Source: a virus
Taxonomy: Duplodnaviria; Heunggongvirae; Uroviricota; Caudoviricetes
Strand: one strand, 5' to 3'
Length of the DNA stretch: 64,000 nucleotides
Virus record (IMG/VR): IMGVR_UViG_3300029305_004380
Coordinates: 2,042 to 66,041 of that record
Shown: positions 35,098 through 50,451 of the stretch, in pieces
Layout: each line of letters opens with the position of its first letter
Numbering within the stretch: the first letter of the stretch is position 1
Notes under the pieces: model-generated
What the model was told of the DNA's origin: nothing
Database searches by the model: none
The model's input: the letters and a program-made list of their open reading frames with translations, nothing else
Translations under genes and position numbers: made by a program

Positions 35098-35186
35098 TGG
35101 TGCAAGAGAAGGGATTCGAACCCTCAATTCCTCACGGACGACGGATTTTAAGTCCGTTGCATATACCAAAATTCTGCCACTCTTGC
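35098..35186 (-). tRNA. tRNA-Leu (anticodon UAA), type II with long variable arm, CCA encoded
   Basis: Manual cloverleaf. Acceptor GCAAGAG/CTCTTGC, 3 bp D-stem, anticodon stem ACGGA/TCCGT, loop CT-TAA-AA, 15 nt variable arm, T-arm GAGGG-TTCGAAT-CCCTT, discriminator A, CCA. Length 89 nt. Confidence 0.85.
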
Positions 35187-35359: not shown

Positions 35360-35433
35360 TGGCTGGGGTAAATGGAATCGAACCAATACTCTAAGAATCA
35401 AAATCTTATGTACTACCGTTATACTATACCCCA
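35360..35433 (-). tRNA. tRNA-Gln (anticodon UUG), CCA encoded
   Basis: Manual cloverleaf. Acceptor TGGGGTA/TACCCCA, D-stem GTAT/GTAC, anticodon stem TAAGA/TCTTA, loop TT-TTG-AT, T-loop TTCGATT, discriminator G, CCA. Length 74 nt. Confidence 0.8.
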
Positions 35434-36854: not shown

Positions 36855-38135
36855 TTACACGTTTATATAATTATTTTTAGCATCTTCTAATAATTGACCA
36901 TCTCTCCAAATATTAAAACAATGATTTTCAGTGAGATCAATAATATTCTTATTTTTAAATTGTTCTCTTACTTTTCTCCAATTTATACCTACATTATCTA
37001 AACCTCTTTGATGAATCCATTTAATATATTCTATATGACCAAAATTATTTTTCATTTCCTGTTGTTGCTGAGTAAATCTTTCTTGAATACTATCAAAATT
37101 CATAGTACCCATTGCAACTGAACTGTATGTCATCCATCTAAATTCACAATTTATAAGACCTGCTTCTAATCCTCTAATAAGTAAATCTAAATCATCATGT
37201 CCATTGCCTATAAGAGTTCTATAATTTAAACCAGACTCTTTAAGTCTCTTTAAATTTAAACAAACAGTTCCTGTAGGAAGTCCTGATAATAATCTCATTG
37301 ATTTTTCTACATTTATAAAATCAGGAACCCAACTAAATCCTTGCATCATACCTGTGGTAAACATCACATTATATTTTTTAGCAACATATTCCATACCAAT
37401 CTGCCACATTGCCATAGTTTTTCCAAAGTTTTGTGTAGTAACTCCTTGAGCTTTTGGTTCACCATTTGCTCTAAACCAAGGAACCGTATGACAAAAATTA
37501 GTAATATCATCGTCACACATAAATATAAAATCATATTTCTTAGAAAAAGCATTTACAATTTGTTCTCTAGTTTTTCCAATGTCATCTATTAATTCATCAG
37601 GAAATGCTTTTATATGTATATAATCATTATATTTTATATACTCTGATGCTTCATACAGTTCTTTTTGAGATTGTCTCACAATAATATAAATTGGATATTC
37701 ATAACCAGGAACAACTATGTCTTTAATCCATTTTACAAAACCACAATTAGGTCTATTATATGATGGAATTACTATAGGGAATAATCTATCCTTTACAATA
37801 TCATACGCTGCTTCATAAAGTTTGTTACTCCAACAATCAACTGCTAATAGCTCTTCAGTTGTAACTTTCGGAGCTTTAACTCTTGGAGTTTTTTCATATT
37901 TCATTTTTTTACCTTCAATATATTGCTCTAAAGATATATTTTTTTTATTTAATTCATCTTTTAATTTTATTACCTCCTCCCAACATTTTTTACACTTTTC
38001 ATCGACACAATCATTACATTCTTTATCACAATTTATAACCGCTTCAACATATGAACTCATGTTTGAAATATTTTTAGGACATTTAAATTCATTTGCTAAA
38101 ACATTTAATATTGTGTCAGTTTTTAATTTTGCCAT
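36855..38135 (-). CDS. putative glycosyltransferase (GT-A-like) with N-terminal Cys-rich zinc-binding region (426 aa)
   Basis: PIVIPSYNRP resembles the GT2 N-terminal strand motif. An acidic DDD (FMCDDDITNF) lies about 85 residues downstream, as a DxD motif would. N-terminal CxxC-x-CxxC cluster. This is a tentative fold assignment. Confidence 0.35.
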   Translation of the reverse strand: MAKLKTDTILNVLANEFKCPKNISNMSSYVEAVINCDKECNDCVDEKCKKCWEEVIKLKDELNKKNISLEQYIEGKKMKYEKTPRVKAPKVTTEELLAVDCWSNKLYEAAYDIVKDRLFPIVIPSYNRPNCGFVKWIKDIVVPGYEYPIYIIVRQSQKELYEASEYIKYNDYIHIKAFPDELIDDIGKTREQIVNAFSKKYDFIFMCDDDITNFCHTVPWFRANGEPKAQGVTTQNFGKTMAMWQIGMEYVAKKYNVMFTTGMMQGFSWVPDFINVEKSMRLLSGLPTGTVCLNLKRLKESGLNYRTLIGNGHDDLDLLIRGLEAGLINCEFRWMTYSSVAMGTMNFDSIQERFTQQQQEMKNNFGHIEYIKWIHQRGLDNVGINWRKVREQFKNKNIIDLTENHCFNIWRDGQLLEDAKNNYINV

Positions 38136-38151: not shown

Positions 38152-38874
38152 TTAATATCCCATTTTGTCTGTTAATGTTTCATCATTTATTATCCAATCA
38201 TTAACTTCTTTTATAATAAAATTATCATTAGGCCTTGCAAACACCACATATTTAATACCTGCATTAATGATTATTTTTTTACACATTTGACACGATTCTA
38301 AATTCTCTATAATATTTCCATCAATATCACTTCCATATAAATATAAAGTAGAATCAATCATTTTTTCTCTTTCAGCATTTATAATTGCATTCATTTCACT
38401 ATGAACACTTCTACATAATTCATATCTTTCTCCTCTTGGAATATTCATTTGTTCTCTTCTACAATATCCTAAATCGATACAATTCATAGTTAATCTGGGA
38501 GAGCCATTATATCCTGTAGAAATTATAGTGTCATTTTTAACAATAACAGAACCATATTTTTTCCTTAAACAGGTAGATCTAGTAGATACTTCTTTTGCAA
38601 TATTTAAATAATATACATGCTTAGAAGGTCTTTCACATGTTTTATCATTTAATTTGTTGTATTGTTCACTGCATTTATTGCAATAATGATGTTTTTCATA
38701 TACATTCCATCCAGATTCATTATATGCACCAACTAAAAGTTTAAAATTATTTATACCTTTAAAAATCATCTTTTTATCACATATATAACATTTAAAATTT
38801 ATGCAATTTTCATTTTTATATTTACTATCTAAATATTTTTTATTCAAACTATTTATTAAATCTATATTTTTCAT
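38152..38874 (-). CDS. dCMP deaminase with N-terminal zinc-finger extension (240 aa)
   Basis: Cytidine/dCMP deaminase zinc motifs HSEMNAI (H-x-E) and SCQMCKK (PCxxC-type) with correct spacing. Confidence 0.8.
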   Translation of the reverse strand: MKNIDLINSLNKKYLDSKYKNENCINFKCYICDKKMIFKGINNFKLLVGAYNESGWNVYEKHHYCNKCSEQYNKLNDKTCERPSKHVYYLNIAKEVSTRSTCLRKKYGSVIVKNDTIISTGYNGSPRLTMNCIDLGYCRREQMNIPRGERYELCRSVHSEMNAIINAEREKMIDSTLYLYGSDIDGNIIENLESCQMCKKIIINAGIKYVVFARPNDNFIIKEVNDWIINDETLTDKMGY

Positions 38875-38954: not shown

Positions 38955-40721
38955 TTATGAAATTTCTATAGAAGATATTTGATTTTTATCTTTAGTAACC
39001 GTAATCATATGATCCATTGCTATTTCTTTAATATCTCTATGAGAAATTATAAATGTTGTTTCAACGTCTTGCATTTCATTACAAATTAAATCTAATATGA
39101 TATTAAATGATATTTCATCACATCCATCAAATATTTCATCTAATATTAATATATTTGATGAAATAGAATTCATTAATTGTGCTAAAAATCTCTGAGCAAT
39201 TATAATAGCTATATCTACTTTTTTTCTTTCACCACCTGATAATTGTTCGTATGTTTTTTCGTTAAGATAAATATCTAATTTGTTATCTCCTTCAATAACT
39301 ATTGTTTCATTTTCAAACAACAAACTTGATAATTCTTTTAATTTTGTATTAAGTCCAATAATGACATTATTTAACAAATATGATTTAAAATGTGTTGTAG
39401 ATAATCTCACACAATGCTGAATTAATGATAATTCTCTATTTAAATCTTTTAATTTATCATTATTTTTATTTATATTTTCTGCGTATGAACATACTTCATC
39501 ACTTAGTTCATAAATTTTATTTTGAAATTCAAAAACGTTATTTCTTAAACTTGCAATTTTTGTATCTTTTTGCAACTCTTGTTCATATTCAGCATGCAAT
39601 AAATTTAAATTATTTTTTAATTCATTCAATGAACTTGACATACTATTTAATTTAGTATACATGTTATTAGATATAATGTTTTGTGTTTCATAATCTTTTT
39701 GTTTACATTCTATTTCATTTGTTAATCTTGTGATTTCGTCATTTAATTCAGTGATATGATTTTTTATATGTTCATTTGATGAATAATCTTCTAATACAGT
39801 TCCGCACGTAGGACAAATCTTATTGTTCGAATACTTATTTACTTCTATTTTTAAATTTTTAATTTTATTATTATTTTCATCAATTGCATGTTTTAATGTA
39901 AATAATAATTGTTGTTGTTTATTAAATTTATCATTCACTGCTTCTTTTTGTGTTTCTAATGTCTTTATTTTTTTATTAATCTCATCAATATCATTTTGGC
40001 TAATATTAGATTTTTGATTAATCAACTCTCTTATTTGTTGTTGTGCATTCACCATCGATTGTTGAGTATCATCTGCTAATTTAAGTTGCATATCCATTTT
40101 AGCTCTTAATTCAGTCGTAGATAATTCATTATTCTTAATATTATAAATAACTTTACCTTCTTTAGTTTTAAGATTATTTACGAAATCTTCTAATCTATCA
40201 TTTATATGATACAATGACTCCAAAAGTTCTTTTCTTTCTTTAGGAGAATAAGTTGCAAATTTATTATTAAATCCTTGTGATAAAAATATAATTTGTGAAA
40301 ATATTTCATTGTCTATTTTTATAATATCTTTTATGATTTTATCTGAATCAGTTTTATTTCTTCCTGAAATATCTTCATTGTTTTTTAAAATAGTTAAATT
40401 AGTTTTATATTCTTTATGTTTCTGTGAACGCCGTATGATATAATTAGTATTGTCTACATCAACATTTAATTCCACAAAACAGCCATTTTTATAAAATTTA
40501 TTAACTACATCATTTGTAACTCCTGCTGGAGTTTTACCAAATAAGCACCAACATATACTTGATAATAATGAAGATTTACCAGCTCCATTAGATTTAGTTT
40601 TAGAATCATATTTATTAATACCTTTGATAAAACATGTTCCTAAATTATTAAAAGCAATTTCAGCTTTACCTAATGATTGAAAGCCTTCTAATCTCATAGA
40701 ATTGAATTTTAAATTAATCAT
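38955..40721 (-). CDS. sbcC: SbcC/Rad50-like ATPase, T4 gp46-like (588 aa)
   Basis: N-terminal Walker A GAGKSSLL, a long central coiled-coil with CPTCG zinc hook, and C-terminal LSGGERKK signature plus D-loop ILDEIFDG. Confidence 0.8.
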   Translation of the reverse strand: MINLKFNSMRLEGFQSLGKAEIAFNNLGTCFIKGINKYDSKTKSNGAGKSSLLSSICWCLFGKTPAGVTNDVVNKFYKNGCFVELNVDVDNTNYIIRRSQKHKEYKTNLTILKNNEDISGRNKTDSDKIIKDIIKIDNEIFSQIIFLSQGFNNKFATYSPKERKELLESLYHINDRLEDFVNNLKTKEGKVIYNIKNNELSTTELRAKMDMQLKLADDTQQSMVNAQQQIRELINQKSNISQNDIDEINKKIKTLETQKEAVNDKFNKQQQLLFTLKHAIDENNNKIKNLKIEVNKYSNNKICPTCGTVLEDYSSNEHIKNHITELNDEITRLTNEIECKQKDYETQNIISNNMYTKLNSMSSSLNELKNNLNLLHAEYEQELQKDTKIASLRNNVFEFQNKIYELSDEVCSYAENINKNNDKLKDLNRELSLIQHCVRLSTTHFKSYLLNNVIIGLNTKLKELSSLLFENETIVIEGDNKLDIYLNEKTYEQLSGGERKKVDIAIIIAQRFLAQLMNSISSNILILDEIFDGCDEISFNIILDLICNEMQDVETTFIISHRDIKEIAMDHMITVTKDKNQISSIEIS

Positions 40722-41839
40722 TTGTTTCCTCCCAACAGTGTAATATACTCATCTATGTTTCCTTTTAAATCATCTCTATTTGAAAGAAATTTAATAAACT
40801 CAGATTCAATATCTACATCCTTATTTATGTGCATATAATTATCATTCTGGACTTCTTTATTATATGTAAATATAAATCTATATTTTATAATATTTGGAAT
40901 ATCTGAAAGGGCTTTTTCAATATCTTCTTTTAAACTAAAATCACATTTAATTTTAACTATTATTTGATTATTTGTAGACTTTAAATCTTTACAAACAGAT
41001 TGTATATCTTCAAGACCATTTATATTATAACTCTTAAATAAAATTGAATGTGGATTTACAAACTGTTCAATATCCCCATTATCTGTATCAAATATATAAC
41101 ATGCAGGAACATGATTATTGCTGTCTGCAAAACTATGACTGGTCAATGATCCAACATTATATATCTTTTTATCATTTTTATTATATATTAATTCGTGACA
41201 ATGTATGTGACCATTTATTATTACATCAAAATGTTCAGCTAAATAATCTGTTGGAATATGATTTTCTATTTTTTTACTACCAAATAAAGTAGATCCATTT
41301 ATATCTCCATGCATAAATAATATTGCTTTAGAATTTAATCTCGGATATTCTATTAACATTTCATCTACAACTTTTATAAAATCTTTAGCTTCTTGAAAAT
41401 TAACAGCATAACAATCCCAAGCACCGCATGTATCAGATGGATTAGTATTAAAATACATATATTTATCAACCAATTGAGTATATCCACATAATTTTAAAAA
41501 TTCTAAAGAATTAAAAGTGTCATTTAATTTATCATGATTTCCAACAATACTAACATCTAATGAAGGATACCATGATAAAATTTCATATGGCTTATATATA
41601 TCATTTATAGTATGAACCAAAGTATGCATTTCATCAGAACTTATAACATGTGAGTCATATAAATCTCCACAATTTACTACTGTGTCTACTTTATTTTTTG
41701 CAAATATATCATAAGCCCATTTAATTGATTTTTTACACATATCTAATCTAGTTGTATATATTTCATTTTCTAAATAAGTAGGCATATTCCCGCTGTTATG
41801 TGAAATATGTACATCTGAATAAATTCCTATTTTTGCCAT
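40718..41839 (-). CDS. sbcD: SbcD/Mre11-like nuclease, T4 gp47-like (373 aa)
   Basis: Calcineurin-like phosphoesterase motifs DVH, GDLYD, GNHD, HGD and GHIH in canonical order. Overlaps sbcC by 4 nt. Confidence 0.8.
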   Translation of the reverse strand: MAKIGIYSDVHISHNSGNMPTYLENEIYTTRLDMCKKSIKWAYDIFAKNKVDTVVNCGDLYDSHVISSDEMHTLVHTINDIYKPYEILSWYPSLDVSIVGNHDKLNDTFNSLEFLKLCGYTQLVDKYMYFNTNPSDTCGAWDCYAVNFQEAKDFIKVVDEMLIEYPRLNSKAILFMHGDINGSTLFGSKKIENHIPTDYLAEHFDVIINGHIHCHELIYNKNDKKIYNVGSLTSHSFADSNNHVPACYIFDTDNGDIEQFVNPHSILFKSYNINGLEDIQSVCKDLKSTNNQIIVKIKCDFSLKEDIEKALSDIPNIIKYRFIFTYNKEVQNDNYMHINKDVDIESEFIKFLSNRDDLKGNIDEYITLLGGNK

Positions 41840-41857
41840 TTATAAACTTCCTTTCAT

Positions 41858-43159
41858 TTAAAAATCAATATTTCTATCTTTAAGTGATTTTTTTATTAAA
41901 TATTTTCTATTAGATAATTGTTTAGGTGTTATATTTAATGTTCCACATATAGTATCAACATCATACGTATTACAATCGTTTAGAAATTGTTTTAATCCTT
42001 CTATGTCATCATATTTAATAGTTGGCTGCCAGTTCTTTGGTCTTTTACCTTTTTTCTTATTTTTATCAGAGACTAATAGTTTATCATTATTCATTTCATT
42101 TTTAGTGTCTACCTCTGGTTTATTTTTTTCGTTATCTATTAAATCTTTATAATTAATACCTTTTCTTTTTAAAAATGATTGTATTGCACTTTTTTTATCA
42201 TAAAGTTTTTGAATATTTTCTAAGTTGTATTTTTTCATACAAGATGCTTTACTCATACTATAATAATCTTTTATAAATTGTGTTGAAAATTCAATTGTAT
42301 ATCTTACCGTGTTTGCTTTTCTATTATCTTTTTTCTCAATATCTTCTTCTTTGATTGCTTCATTTGAAGATTTAATTGATTGTTCAAATATATTTTTCGC
42401 AGGAGTTAATGTATTTCCAATAGATTTGTATAAATATATTAAAGAATTTAAAATATCATCTAATTTTTTAGAATTAGCAACATATAAATCTTTTACTATT
42501 TTTAAATCCTCATGAAATGAAACGGTTGACTTATTTGTTTCATCTATCATTGATTTTAAGTTGGTTATATTATCATTTGTGGTTATAAACTTATTTTGTA
42601 TGTCTGTAAAAGAATTAATATAATTAACAGTGTCTCTACTATTCACATTGTTAACGTGTTCTTCATATTTAGTAAATTTATCTTCAATATATTTATCAAA
42701 CTTAGCAGTTTTTTGTTTGATAATTAAATTTAAAGTAGATTCCAGTTTATTTAAAAAATCAAGAGAAGATAATTCCCGTTCTGATATATTTAAATCAAAT
42801 TCTACAGCAAGGGCTATATCTATTTTTTTCATAACTAATTCAGATAATCTACCTATATATTCACCTAAATCATGTTTATTAATACACCTACATTGTTCTA
42901 ATAAAATTACTTGCGGTCTACCTTCAAATTCATAATAAACTTGATATGGTCCTACTGAAGATTTAGGTCTGGTGGTTATAGGAGCTATAGTTACTACATC
43001 ACCTTTTTTATTTCCTATATCATTTGATATAATAACTACTGGTCTTTTTTTACCTTCAATTCTATTAGGTTGTATATCTCCTAAATCATAATAATAAACA
43101 TTTCCTCTACTAAATACGTCCAACATTAATCTTTCTCCTTTGTATAACAATTTATCCAT
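41858..43159 (-). CDS. MazF/PemK/EndoA-family endoribonuclease domain fused to about 300 aa C-terminal extension (433 aa)
   Basis: Residues about 15-125 match the EndoA/MazF family closely: RGNVYYYDLG...GKKRPVVIISNDIGN...VAPIT...VILLEQCRCINK...KIDIALAVEF. The rest is coiled-coil, Lys-rich, with a possible C-terminal HTH. Confidence 0.7.
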   Translation of the reverse strand: MDKLLYKGERLMLDVFSRGNVYYYDLGDIQPNRIEGKKRPVVIISNDIGNKKGDVVTIAPITTRPKSSVGPYQVYYEFEGRPQVILLEQCRCINKHDLGEYIGRLSELVMKKIDIALAVEFDLNISERELSSLDFLNKLESTLNLIIKQKTAKFDKYIEDKFTKYEEHVNNVNSRDTVNYINSFTDIQNKFITTNDNITNLKSMIDETNKSTVSFHEDLKIVKDLYVANSKKLDDILNSLIYLYKSIGNTLTPAKNIFEQSIKSSNEAIKEEDIEKKDNRKANTVRYTIEFSTQFIKDYYSMSKASCMKKYNLENIQKLYDKKSAIQSFLKRKGINYKDLIDNEKNKPEVDTKNEMNNDKLLVSDKNKKKGKRPKNWQPTIKYDDIEGLKQFLNDCNTYDVDTICGTLNITPKQLSNRKYLIKKSLKDRNIDF

Positions 43160-43262
43160 TTTATTAACTTCCTATATAATATAATAGCAGTAATATAAGT
43201 TTATTATTTAATAATTCATAAATTTATAATTATACTTATATTTCTTATAATTCTATTTATAC

Positions 43263-43296
43263 AAAAAATAAAGCGATGAAAAACATCGCTTTATAA
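43263..43296 (-). terminator. intrinsic terminator (AAAGCGATG / CATCGCTTT)
   Basis: A 9 bp stem and 5 nt A loop, with A and T runs both sides. Confidence 0.55.
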
Positions 43297-43483
43297 TAAA
43301 TATGTGTTATATAATTTATTTTCAAGAAATTTAGGAATTTTTATTTTCTTAATTGTTATATAATTCCTATAATTTTCATCTTTAATTCTATATTTTACGT
43401 TTTTGTGTAACACTGTTTTTGTGTTTATATCAAAATATCTTCGATTAAATACCAAACATTTTATCATATTTGCAAACTCCCAA

Positions 43484-44221
43484 TTATATCAATTTATTAT
43501 GTAATTGTTTCATATGTTTCTTTACCATTCCTGCCCAATCAGAACCATCGGGACAGTATTTTGATTCAATAGAGTCAATTGAAGTTCTAGAGCCATAGCT
43601 ATTATGTATTAATTTTCCAAAATACATTATACATTCATGTTGGCTACTAAATTTCATCCACCCTGACTTTCCTCTAAAACCAAAATAATTATGAGTATTA
43701 GCTTTCTTAGTACCGTAAGCTGATTCATGCATTGCAACCGCCATAGCAAATAATGCATTCACTTCATGTTCATTTTCCATTTGAAAAAATGATTCACCAG
43801 TATTTGCTAATCCTGTACCTTCAAGCATTTTATTTAATTGTTTTATTGAATATCCACTTTTAGAATGAGGATTATAGTTAATCGTATTAGGAATGTTATC
43901 AACATTGTTAATATCATCTAACTGTAATTTTAATTGTTCTATTTCAGCTTTTAATTGTTGTATTTGAGTTTCATATTCTGCATTTTGTGTTTTTAAGTCG
44001 TTTATAATATCGTTTTGTTCATTATAAACAAGTCTTGTATTAAAAAAATATGAATTACGTAAAGGTAATTGTAAATCATCAATCAATCTATATCTAAACG
44101 GCATAATATCTACCGATTGAGATTGTGAAGCGCTGCATACCATAGATGAATTTATAGTCCAAATTAAAATAATCATAACACACATTAATATTTTTATAAT
44201 TTTACTTCTTAATAATTTCAT
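43484..44221 (-). CDS. secreted GH73-type glucosaminidase (peptidoglycan hydrolase) with signal peptide and coiled-coil linker (245 aa)
   Basis: N-terminal signal/TM. C-terminal AMAVAMHESAYG...NYFGFRG resembles the FlgJ/LytD glucosaminidase core. Confidence 0.6.
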   Translation of the reverse strand: MKLLRSKIIKILMCVMIILIWTINSSMVCSASQSQSVDIMPFRYRLIDDLQLPLRNSYFFNTRLVYNEQNDIINDLKTQNAEYETQIQQLKAEIEQLKLQLDDINNVDNIPNTINYNPHSKSGYSIKQLNKMLEGTGLANTGESFFQMENEHEVNALFAMAVAMHESAYGTKKANTHNYFGFRGKSGWMKFSSQHECIMYFGKLIHNSYGSRTSIDSIESKYCPDGSDWAGMVKKHMKQLHNKLI

Positions 44222-44293
44222 TTACTTTAACTCCTTACTTAGTTAATTATGTTGATTGCTAACATAAGGATAATTTCAATTAATTTTAATTAA

Positions 44294-44584
44294 TTATTCA
44301 ATTATTGCCAATATCTCAGATTGTTTAACTATCCTATAATTTTCGTTTTCAATGTTTATTTCACTGCCTATCCATTCAGGCACTATAACCTTATCTCCAG
44401 GTTTTACTACAATTTTAACATCAACATCATTTATTATTCCACCAGGTCCAACTTCTATAACCTCGTGTATATATTTATTAATATCATTTTTTGCGTTGTT
44501 TGTTAATATGATAGATGTTTTTTGTATTTCTTCGAATTTACATTTCTTAATAATTACTCTATCTAATGTAGGATTAATATTCAT
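44294..44584 (-). CDS. groES: GroES-family co-chaperonin (96 aa after start trimming)
   Basis: INPTLDRVIIKK...SIILT...EVIEVGPG...VKPGDKVIV...YRIVKQSEILAIIE aligns along the full length with bacterial GroES. Confidence 0.75.
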   Translation of the reverse strand: MNINPTLDRVIIKKCKFEEIQKTSIILTNNAKNDINKYIHEVIEVGPGGIINDVDVKIVVKPGDKVIVPEWIGSEINIENENYRIVKQSEILAIIE

Positions 44585-44704
44585 AAGTGTTACACTCTCC
44601 AAATCATGTTATTTATTTCAGTATAAATAAATTACCTAATAATCATGTAAAAATTTCATTATATCACCTCCAAATTAAATACTATTTATATTTTATAGGT
44701 TTAA

Positions 44705-44757
44705 TAAAAAATTTGAATTCATTATTTAAAATTTAATTATAATGAATTCAAATTTTT
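44705..44757 (-). terminator. intrinsic terminator, 13 bp stem (TTTGAATTCATTA / TAATGAATTCAAA)
   Basis: Perfect inverted repeat with A and T runs. It follows the SSB gene. Confidence 0.55.
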
Positions 44758-44778
44758 AACATTATTTTAAATATTAGA

Positions 44779-45828
44779 TTATACGCATTCTGAATCCCAC
44801 GGACATGCTGCGCACTCTTCATTATATTTATTATCACCATAACATGGTGGTCTTTCACCTAAAGGTTTAGATGTACTAACTGCATCAATATTACTTAAAT
44901 CTTCAGTCACACTTAAATTTATCTGCTCAGGTGTTACAGTAGACGCTAATAAATCAACTGAAGATGAAGTATTCACCGTTTGTTGAGGTTGATTTTGTAC
45001 TGGATTAGGTACACTCATAGGAGCAGCTTGCATATGTGCTTTTGTTACATCAACATTTCCAAAATATTGATTATTTATTGCTTCTACTATAGTTTTTTGA
45101 ATTTTTACATATTCATCTGTAGGTTTTGATGCAAACTTTACTTCTCTTAAATCTGGCATTTTAGACATAAATTCATTAAATGCACTTTCATCCGGTTCTC
45201 CTGATTCAGTTACACATAATGTAGAACTTGTACCTTTTGGATAAAAAGTATATTCTGGAAAACCATTAGCTTGTGTACCAACTTTAAGAGTAATATTTCT
45301 TGTTGTATTATTAACAAATAAGGTTTCAATTTCATCTTGAAATTCAACAATGAGTTTACTTAATTCATTTATAACTGATTTTGGAAACATGAATAATACT
45401 ATATCTCCTGATTTAGGAGTATTATTTCCATCTCCAAAATAATTATCAGGAGAATAACCAATCAATTTAGCAAACATTATTCCTCTTTTCTTAAAGCCAT
45501 ATGTTCTAAATACGTTTTTGTCATCTAATGTATTTTGAACATTTTCTATTGCATTACATATAGGACAATCCATACCATACATATGACGAAAACAAGGAAC
45601 TGATATTTTTTTATTATCAGCTTTATAATCATGAAATGTTAATTCTCGGTATAATAAACCTGATGGTTCATTACCAATAAATTTAAGTTCCAATCTACCA
45701 TTTGCATATGGATATAATGTTTTATATCCTAATCCTCCGCCGCTAGATGTATTAGATGCATCTGCTTGTTTTTGCATTTCTTTTGCTACAAGGTCTGTAA
45801 AATTAAATGCCATTTTAAATTCCTCCAT
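44779..45828 (-). CDS. T4 gp32-like single-stranded DNA-binding protein (349 aa)
   Basis: The LKFIGNEPS...FHDYK...PCFRH...DCPICN His/Cys zinc-site arrangement and an acidic Asp/Glu-rich C-terminus are typical of gp32-family SSBs. Confidence 0.55.
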   Translation of the reverse strand: MEEFKMAFNFTDLVAKEMQKQADASNTSSGGGLGYKTLYPYANGRLELKFIGNEPSGLLYRELTFHDYKADNKKISVPCFRHMYGMDCPICNAIENVQNTLDDKNVFRTYGFKKRGIMFAKLIGYSPDNYFGDGNNTPKSGDIVLFMFPKSVINELSKLIVEFQDEIETLFVNNTTRNITLKVGTQANGFPEYTFYPKGTSSTLCVTESGEPDESAFNEFMSKMPDLREVKFASKPTDEYVKIQKTIVEAINNQYFGNVDVTKAHMQAAPMSVPNPVQNQPQQTVNTSSSVDLLASTVTPEQINLSVTEDLSNIDAVSTSKPLGERPPCYGDNKYNEECAACPWDSECV

Positions 45829-49524: not shown

Positions 49525-50451
49525 TTAATGAATAAATTTACTAACATTCATGTTATTTAACATATATATTAGTTCTTCATTTTTTAATAGTTTATTATCC
49601 AAAATTTCATTTTTAGATTTATTACTTAAAATATCAAAATCATGCATTATTTCACTTAATATGTCTCTATAATTTCTATCATCATAATATTCAAAATAAT
49701 ATATATCTTCTTTTCCTTTTTTATATATTTCATTCATAGTTGTAATATATTTTTCATTATCTGTTATAAAATTTTCTTTATAACAATGCAAACTACCGAA
49801 TAGATGCGTATAAGTTCCCATTTCAACATTCAATTCTTTTGCCATCATCATTTGCCAAATAATAAATTGTGTCATATCATTAGGTAATCCGAACCAAATA
49901 TCACAACTTCTCATATACACAATACAATTTAATTTATTATCTCTAAGTAAAAATTGTATTGATGATGTACAAGGAGTATCATCATCTTGTCTATGCTTCA
50001 TTATAGGTATTTGCCAAATAGCTTGTCTAGAATATGGGTCTCTTTTTAATAATTCAACTGTTGCATCAAAAACTGTTAATTCTGGATTTTTATTATCTTT
50101 TTGAACAAATATATAATGTCCATAATTAGAATTAACAAGACCTTTTTCATCACCATCTTTATTAACTAAATCGTTCCAAATATTTGCAGGTGCATCTTTC
50201 ACATCTCTACTTCCATTTAAATACCACATGCATTCTTTTGCAAGATAAATAGGACTTAACTTTCTAATAGGTGACCACATTAAACAATTTTGTGGTTCCA
50301 ATATTCTAAACCCAATACCTACACTTTCATTAGTAACTCTACCACGAGCACATGAATTATAGAAATTATCAATAGAATGATCAACGTCGGTGTGTCCTAA
50401 TTCATCATATAATACACTCCAAGCTTCTACTGCAGTTTTAAAATTATACAT
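49525..50451 (-). CDS. ThyA-family pyrimidine C5-hydroxymethylase/methylase with dCMP-hydroxymethylase-type active site (308 aa)
   Basis: Whole-length ThyA-fold match (NSNYG, YMRSCDIWFG). The catalytic Cys is in PCT rather than PCH. The ThyA Asn177 position is Asp (LPNDMTQF versus ThyA LPFNIASY). That is the substitution that distinguishes dCMP hydroxymethylase from thymidylate synthase. Confidence 0.7.
   Translation of the reverse strand: MYNFKTAVEAWSVLYDELGHTDVDHSIDNFYNSCARGRVTNESVGIGFRILEPQNCLMWSPIRKLSPIYLAKECMWYLNGSRDVKDAPANIWNDLVNKDGDEKGLVNSNYGHYIFVQKDNKNPELTVFDATVELLKRDPYSRQAIWQIPIMKHRQDDDTPCTSSIQFLLRDNKLNCIVYMRSCDIWFGLPNDMTQFIIWQMMMAKELNVEMGTYTHLFGSLHCYKENFITDNEKYITTMNEIYKKGKEDIYYFEYYDDRNYRDILSEIMHDFDILSNKSKNEILDNKLLKNEELIYMLNNMNVSKFIH

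Follow-up and report, generated by a model that had tools for sequence, protein, structure and literature searches.

The DNA considered here is a stretch of 64,000 nucleotides (nt) from a virus of the Caudoviricetes (positions 2,042 to 66,041 of IMG/VR record IMGVR_UViG_3300029305_004380; referred to as the window), and the gene in question, at 41858-43159 on its minus strand, encodes a MazF-type toxin domain fused to an extension of about 300 amino acids (aa). MazF is, to our knowledge, among the best-studied bacterial toxins and nearly all that is known of it concerns proteins of about 110 aa that are paired with MazE. The window is low in guanine plus cytosine (22-29% GC), and all its substantial open reading frames (ORFs) lie on the minus strand. 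The original prediction, made from the letters and the ORF list, had assigned a MazF-type N-terminus to this ORF, and the assignment is borne out by the ORF list, Pfam PF02452, PHROG 1936 and phmmer searches. The gene and the parts of its product are:

41858-43159, minus strand: full ORF of the MazF-fusion protein, 433 aa in the ORF list, stop codon included
43124-43126, minus strand: Met12 of the listed ORF, where translation probably starts, with a ribosome-binding site AAGGAG at 43140-43135 and 8-nt spacing
42785-43126, minus strand: MazF/PemK/EndoA-type endoribonuclease domain (residues 12-125 of the listed ORF)
42410-42784, minus strand: conserved post-MazF linker (SERELSSLDFLNKLE...) and three long predicted helices, ending LDxILxSLIxLYK
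42149-42313, minus strand: repeat module A (residues 283-337, RYTIEFSTQFIKDYY...KKYNL...FLKRKGINY), about 55 aa, basic, three/four-helix, helix-turn-helix (HTH)-like
41861-42025, minus strand: repeat module B (residues 379-433, WQPTIKYDD..FLNDCN..TLNITPKQLSNRKYLIKKSLKDRNIDF), the terminal copy

The MazF domain and its tail

The N-terminal domain matches PF02452 (PemK_toxin) over residues 18-119 and profile positions 2-107 of 109 (E=3.2e-20, 72.8 bits against a cut-off of 23.1), and the fusion protein matches PHROG 1936 ('MazF-like growth inhibitor') with E=5.6e-18. Among PDB sequences, phmmer returns S. aureus MazF, B. anthracis MoxT, B. cereus MazF and B. subtilis EndoA/YdcE at E values of about 1e-13 to 1e-12, and the domain has the SH3-like beta-barrel fold of MazF/Kid/CcdB proteins. 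The motifs RPVVIISNDIGN, VILLEQ and IDIALAVEF, quoted in the original prediction, are all present, and a fourth, given there as 'VAPIT', is actually 'IAPIT'. In the HMMER alignment GKKRPVV, APITTR and VILLEQ of the query pair with GGVRPVV, AAITGR and VILLEQ of S. aureus MazF. More specifically, R39 and T62 of the fusion align to Arg25 and Thr48 of Bacillus MazF (B. subtilis), and Arg25/Thr48 mutants of the Bacillus enzyme lose both RNase activity and toxicity (PMC7354611). The catalytic residues on which the toxin reading had been staked are therefore present in the alignment. Across 22 family members, R39 is found in 21, T62 in 21 (with one S), R64 in all 22, and E88 and Q89 in 21 each. The domain looks catalytically competent, and because the catalytic Arg/Thr pair is kept in 21-22 of the 22 members, an active RNase appears more likely than a dead decoy. 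Profile match, fold and catalytic residues all agree with the MazF/PemK superfamily; the size does not agree with canonical MazEF, where the toxin is a single domain of about 110 aa, since the fusion measures 422-433 aa with a conserved 300-aa extension.

The extension, which the original prediction had also described, is real. The same single ORF combining MazF with about 300 further residues is seen again in more than 20 distinct sequences at 26-43% identity (the full-length architecture is also present in P0002 and other homologues), and this recurrence argues against a frameshift or an assembly artefact. The product itself is probably 422 aa long, starting at Met12, since a ribosome-binding site precedes this codon and all homologues start at the position aligned with it.

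The layout of the tail was modelled with AlphaFold2 (AF2), as a monomer only and with a predicted template modelling (pTM) score of 0.31 for the whole model. In the deeper model (numbered from Met12) a short low-confidence linker is followed by three helices (121-160, 165-196 and 201-238; predicted local distance difference test score, pLDDT, about 50-85), a disordered spacer (239-272), a helical module (278-329), a second disordered spacer (332-362) and a three-helix module (375-417). The three-helix region is probably a helical or coiled-coil stalk. The sub-regions of 42410-42784 show identities of 44%, 29% and 37%, and the segment right after the MazF core, DLNxxxxELxSxEFLxRLD, has a mean identity of 44%. 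The tail had been described beforehand as Lys-rich, coiled-coil and HTH-like; its Lys content is not uniform, since module A and the spacer after it are basic and the stalk is slightly acidic (isoelectric point, pI, 5.4). The spacers joining the stalk to the modules are rich in K, N and E.

Modules A and B are homologous to each other (profile-profile hhalign probability 97.3%, E=2.7e-11), and both are modelled with good local scores (pLDDT of about 92 for A and about 90 for B) and detected by a hidden Markov model (HMM) of the module family (E=1.5e-20 and 1.7e-24, respectively). Each consists in the AF2 model of a 13-residue helix, a short helix of 7-8 residues, a turn and a 17-residue helix (375-387, 390-397 and 401-417 in module B, Met12 numbering), a geometry that suggests an HTH-like unit. 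Module B is the best conserved part of the tail and occurs in every complete family member, and the module HMM finds one to three copies per family protein. By region, mean pairwise identity is 59% in the MazF core, 47% in module B, 44% in the post-MazF linker, 40% in module A and 18-30% in the middle helices and spacers.

The extension has no match in Pfam or PHROG, and the stalk has none in PDB either. Module profiles searched against PDB sequences, and each module searched against Pfam, gave nothing significant; HTH_Mga was weakly matched by 3 of 25 modules (E>=0.008). The structure-based search that had been recommended for the C-terminal region was run three times, once with a shallow model, and returned MazF/Kid/CcdB proteins or noise only, the MazF domain dominating the result. 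In one outlier, P0003 (248 aa), the MazF domain is missing and modules A and B follow an N-terminus that resembles a signal peptide or transmembrane segment; this reflects either chimeric assembly or natural variation, with the modules joined to something other than MazF.

The fusion is rare and occurs in one small clade of uncultivated phages only. When 1.84 billion representatives were searched exhaustively with HMMER, the tail profile matched 17 proteins, which share the MazF-stalk-module architecture except for fragments and the outliers P0003, P0009, P0013 and P0017. In a collection of 5.8 billion proteins the family profile found 14 clusters, all 14 with PF02452, and the full-length query found itself and one relative (34% identity, 97% coverage). 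GenBank phages contain no DNA similar to the window, and tblastn against them matched the MazF part only (at most 34% of the fusion protein covered). A scan of IMG/VR with a two-sequence tail profile gave no match; with the full-family profile, IMG/VR yielded one fusion-type contig as against at least 226 contigs with short MazF-like genes, and the JGI/ENA metagenome contigs yielded one new fusion contig (226 kb) together with the contig already matched in IMG/VR. In 185,579 species-representative genomes the fusion was not found, only short MazF domains, mostly in Clostridia. By helicase, the closest cultured phages (25-35% identity) are Bacillus SP-15 and Herelleviridae-type phages of Firmicutes, and the window phage is a virulent-type, low-GC relative of the Herelleviridae, whose host is probably a low-GC Firmicute. 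No paper on such a MazF fusion, or on any characterised phage MazF-like protein, was found in the literature.

Short MazF-like genes are also present in many GenBank phages, and in two records that were inspected no antitoxin was annotated. The earlier statement that MazF is always paired with an antitoxin therefore fails for phages. Many of these short genes (among them L013 9989-10525 and a large part of L008-L086; those that were read encode about 110-180 aa) align with the window protein as far as about residue 137. Because the matches run past the MazF core, a short conserved C-terminal tail seems to be general in phage MazF-like proteins.

Gene neighbourhood and candidate antitoxins

That the gene belongs to a phage, as originally proposed, is confirmed by its neighbours, which include primase, helicase, gp32-like single-stranded DNA-binding protein (SSB), GroES, SbcCD, dCMP deaminase and DNA glycosyltransferase. 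The features nearest to it are:

38955-40721, minus strand: SbcC/Rad50-like ATPase (Pfam AAA_23, SbcC_Walker_B), overlapping the SbcD stop, same unit
40718-41839, minus strand: SbcD/Mre11-like phosphoesterase (Pfam Metallophos, PHROG 100), 18 nt downstream of the fusion gene
43268-43294, minus strand: intrinsic terminator-like hairpin with T-run, directly 3' of the 58-aa ORF
43291-43467, minus strand: conserved basic 58-aa ORF (pI 10), between the glucosaminidase and the fusion gene
43484-44221: glucosaminidase, upstream of the 58-aa ORF
44294-44602, minus strand: GroES/Cpn10 co-chaperonin (Pfam E=1.6e-17), part of the replication module and kept in all related loci
44779-45828, minus strand: gp32-like SSB with a conserved Cys-rich C-terminal tail, CYGDNKYNEECAACPWDSECV (counterpart at L087 2221-3354)

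Twelve related loci were compared (L001-L004, L007, L087 and L150-L155). The gene order of the clade runs from helicase, primase, gp32-like SSB, GroES, glucosaminidase, an ORF of about 59 aa, SLT transglycosylase and an acidic ORF of 109-142 aa to the MazF fusion, which is followed by the SbcD-like gene, sometimes a homing endonuclease, the SbcC-like gene, dCMP deaminase, DNA glycosyltransferase and dUTPase. L003 lacks SLT, and the window lacks both SLT and the acidic gene. SbcD lies directly downstream of the fusion gene in all related loci (an 18-nt gap in the window, 1-nt or direct adjacency in L001, an overlap in L003) and is probably co-transcribed with it. On the upstream side, the terminator-like hairpin implies that the fusion gene heads its own transcription unit; an AT-rich spacer of about 110 nt separates the two, and the 131-nt interval between the 58-aa ORF and the listed fusion ORF holds no other ORF. 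In relatives a comparable hairpin, and after it a strong extended -10 promoter, lie upstream of SLT. The fusion proteins of the window and L153 share 35% identity, as against 65% for the SbcD proteins encoded next to them. The fusion has diverged fast relative to SbcD, as is typical of host-interaction proteins.

The gene immediately upstream had been taken for the secreted glucosaminidase; it is in fact the 58-aa ORF, which is 43-52% identical to ORFs of 59/60 aa behind the glucosaminidase in L002-L004. As a candidate antitoxin this ORF is rejected: its product is basic, a terminator follows it, it has no antitoxin domain, and in the relatives it is more distant, with one or two genes (the acidic gene and usually SLT as well) between it and the fusion gene. 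The earlier statement that no antitoxin-like ORF is visible holds for the window, where no MazE/PemI-type gene (ribbon-helix-helix, RHH, or AbrB) adjoins the fusion and the downstream gene is SbcD. It does not hold for the relatives, which carry the small acidic gene directly upstream of the fusion gene, 70-80 nt away, in 12 of the 12 other loci, at these positions:

L001 804-1133; L002 9595-9924; L003 8638-8982; L004 2488-2817; L007 9523-9951; L087 5590-5922
L150-L153 6001-6330; L154 940-1281; L155 1878-2219

The acidic protein (pI 4.0-4.7) is 60-85% identical among most members. The 32 clusters of its family all come from this clade and from the contigs that carry the fusion, and searches of Pfam, PHROGs, PADLOC, NCBIfam and PDB sequences gave no match to it. 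Since it holds this position at all 12 other loci, the fusion family taken together does not plainly lack an antitoxin, and the acidic protein of the relatives may be the cognate neutraliser. In the window, which covers 64 kb of a 114.6-kb source contig, neither tblastn nor a six-frame HMM search found a homologue of the acidic gene; as far as these 64 kb show, the partner is dispensable, since the fusion is kept intact.

Other candidates were also rejected. For a type III RNA antitoxin or other structured RNA near the fusion, the region 40500-45000 holds only low-scoring AT-rich micro-repeats and no Rfam match. A resemblance of the post-MazF segment to the toxin-binding C-terminus of Bacillus/Staphylococcus MazE was also considered, and it was not supported on testing: the family profile found no MazE in PDB sequences at E<=10, and the idea of a MazE-like peptide in cis is further weakened by the alignment of 'DLN' to MazF's own C-terminal end. 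In PADLOC-DB the fusion protein and the 58-aa ORF, like the acidic protein, are without a match.

Some observations concern the surrounding genes. Extra genes lie between SbcD and SbcC at L001 3700-4545, L003 11736-12590 and L007 12528-13436, and none does so in the window. The L001 gene, the only one scanned, gave a sub-threshold HNH_3 match and a weak AP2 match; the inserts look like mobile homing-endonuclease insertions. The Cys-rich tail of the SSB is possibly a C-terminal zinc-binding motif. At L003 7241-7468 a Tad8-family protein (PF25189) is encoded between the SSB and GroES genes, and no convincing counterpart was found in the window (best tblastn E=0.049). Further genes of the window concern DNA modification and translation:

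35098-35186 and 35360-35433, minus strand: tRNA-Leu(UAA) and tRNA-Gln(UUG), two phage tRNA genes
36855-38135, minus strand: glycosyltransferase, TAGT-type PF20691, also matching PHROG 842 (beta-glucosyl-HMC-alpha-glucosyltransferase), beside the dCMP deaminase
38152-38874, minus strand: dCMP deaminase
49525-50451, minus strand: thymidylate-synthase homologue, possibly a deoxynucleoside monophosphate (dNMP) hydroxymethylase

The thymidylate-synthase homologue, the dCMP deaminase and the glycosyltransferase together suggest hypermodified DNA with glycosylated hydroxymethyl-pyrimidines, as in SPO1, SP-15 and T4-type phages. At the position of the glycosyltransferase the relatives carry a T4 AGT-type enzyme (PF11440; L002 15122-16426, L003 15188-16492, L087 11096-12412), and related phages seem to have exchanged one DNA-glycosylation enzyme for another.

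Proposed function and rival explanations

The explanation favoured here, to which we give an even chance, is that the fusion is a sequence-specific endoribonuclease deployed by the phage during replication, cutting host and/or early phage RNA and dimerised or targeted through its tail. As in other MazFs, the domain would cleave single-stranded RNA wherever a short motif occurs, by means of the Arg39/Thr62 pair. MazF acts as a dimer, and dimerisation through the stalk is proposed for this reason: the helical stalk would probably hold two chains together, and the two modules of about 55 aa would probably anchor the enzyme on nucleic acid or a host factor, or direct it there. The protein would be made in the replication phase, in one unit with SbcD and SbcC within the replication and nucleotide-modification module, and the outcome may be host take-over or mRNA turnover, a role like that of T4 RegB by analogy. 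A toxin without an antitoxin would be tolerable here because a lytic phage need not keep its host alive; in the relatives the acidic protein, whose gene is not in the window, may modulate or neutralise the enzyme.

Several points weigh against this explanation. A scan of the spacer upstream of the fusion gene for sigma-70-like promoters on the coding strand passed none. For nucleic-acid binding by the modules, the evidence consists of their three-helix geometry, the charge of module A and the weak HTH_Mga matches, with no fold or family assigned. The sequence U^ACAU is the cleavage site of B. subtilis and S. aureus MazF (PMC5408214), and UACAU is not depleted on the phage mRNA strand (111 observed, about 111-117 expected), so that no self-sparing through avoidance of the motif is seen, although this count says nothing either way because the site of EndoA and SaMazF may not be that of the fusion enzyme. 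Finally, the acidic gene in antitoxin position at 12 of the 12 other loci suits a toxin-antitoxin or otherwise regulated system at least equally well. Indeed, the fusion could be the toxin of a phage-borne two-gene module of toxin-antitoxin type, which would act in superinfection exclusion, in abortive infection aimed at competitors or in addiction. The acidic protein would then be the antitoxin, and the window phage, from which the genes for the antitoxin and SLT would have been lost, would be left with an orphan toxin. The position, size and charge of the acidic protein suit a type II antitoxin, and so does the restriction of its family to the clade and contigs of the fusion. However, the protein matches neither an antitoxin family nor a solved antitoxin; it is much better conserved than the fusion, the reverse of what is usual in a co-evolving pair; the window fusion is intact and complete in its catalytic residues in spite of the missing acidic homologue; PADLOC recognises nothing; and the core replication operon of a virulent-type phage is an odd place for a defence cassette. 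We regard such a module as unlikely, while still a serious contender.

It is also conceivable that the MazF fold is used without catalysis, as a decoy or anti-defence protein (titrating host MazE, or poisoning host MazF by heterodimerisation), as a DNA- or RNA-binding regulator, or as an accessory of SbcCD. Host MazF acts against phages and is counteracted by Bacillus phages (PMC10769878), a crystal structure of E. coli MazF contains a single-stranded DNA analogue of the substrate (PDB 5cr2), the operon link to SbcD and SbcC is invariant, and the tail is built of repeated small helical modules. Yet a pure binder or decoy could lose the catalytic Arg/Thr pair and the LLEQ motif, which are kept in 21-22 of 22 members, and the tie to SbcCD consists in adjacency, so that we hold non-catalytic use to be decidedly improbable. 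More doubtful still is a self-regulated toxin in a single chain, whose extension would fold back on the RNA groove of MazF until a trigger (a competing phage, a host factor or DNA binding) releases it, as in CapRel. The strong conservation of the segment right after the MazF core, the presence of the same post-MazF tail in many short phage MazF-like proteins and the solitary position of the fusion gene in the window would fit; against it, the linker profile finds neither MazE nor another antitoxin among PDB sequences even at E<=10, and AF2 models the start of the linker with low confidence and the remainder as an extended helix, in a whole model with the low pTM given above. A bolder version of the favoured endoribonuclease is a long shot of the same order: the fusion would be a targeted nuclease partnering an SbcD/SbcC-like complex and not a generic shut-off toxin, its modules and stalk bringing a MazF RNase dimer to particular nucleic-acid structures (for instance transcripts or RNA-DNA hybrids found at replication/recombination intermediates, or RNA associated with the host nucleoid), and the acidic protein of the relatives would then be a new dedicated inhibitor.

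Significance and comparison with known systems

A clade of large uncultivated phages keeps a MazF domain with intact catalytic residues, fused to a new repeat domain within an SbcCD operon, over deep divergence. If active, the protein would (i) be a counterpart, in phages of Gram-positive bacteria, of T4 RegB, that is, a toxin-fold RNase for take-over, (ii) be a source of a new sequence-specific RNase and of a new small binding domain and (iii) provide, in loci with and without the acidic gene, a natural test case for how phages control the neutralisation of their own toxins or manage without it. If the partnership with SbcD and SbcC were true, it would mean a new domain family and a new functional coupling of a toxin-fold RNase to DNA-end processing. 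If the protein is inactive, or is the toxin of a standard toxin-antitoxin pair that happens to carry an unusual tail, the finding is of modest importance, and an ordinary explanation of this kind is plausible.

Among known systems, the Firmicute MazF, EndoA (YdcE) and PemK proteins (S. aureus MazF 4MZM, B. subtilis MazF 4MDX/1NE8, B. cereus 7BXY) resemble the fusion over about 110 residues at 36-43% identity, with the catalytic Arg/Thr and LLEQ kept. They are about 115 aa long, whereas the fusion, at 422-433 aa, is about four times longer and adds a stalk and two novel modules; unlike them, it is encoded by a phage, in a replication/recombination operon, and has no adjacent MazE-type (RHH/AbrB) gene. 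T4 RegB is an early phage endoribonuclease with the RelE/YoeB toxin fold and no known antitoxin, which inactivates mRNAs during infection (PMC3014915). Its likeness to the fusion is an analogy of role (a sequence-specific phage endoribonuclease with a toxin fold), since RegB is a small single domain of RelE/YoeB and not MazF fold, unrelated in sequence and from another phage lineage and host. In CapRel(SJ46), EzeT and similar fused toxin-antitoxins, too, a single chain encoded on a mobile element or phage unites a toxin domain with a long additional region; they belong to other toxin families, and the tail of the fusion has no similarity to known antitoxin domains. The solitary MazF-like genes of virulent phages in PHROG 1936 (for example in Lactobacillus phages Maenad and ATCC 8014-B2 and Psychrobacillus phage Perkons) share the MazF domain, have no recognised antitoxin annotated and possess the short post-MazF tail that the fusion protein also matches with that profile. 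These proteins are 110-180 aa long and, unlike the fusion, are without stalk, repeat modules or linkage to SbcCD. Such solitary genes have already been catalogued, so that a phage MazF without a partner is in itself no novelty; the novelty lies in the conserved combination of stalk and repeated modules, in the linkage to the SbcCD operon and in the clade-specific acidic neighbour.

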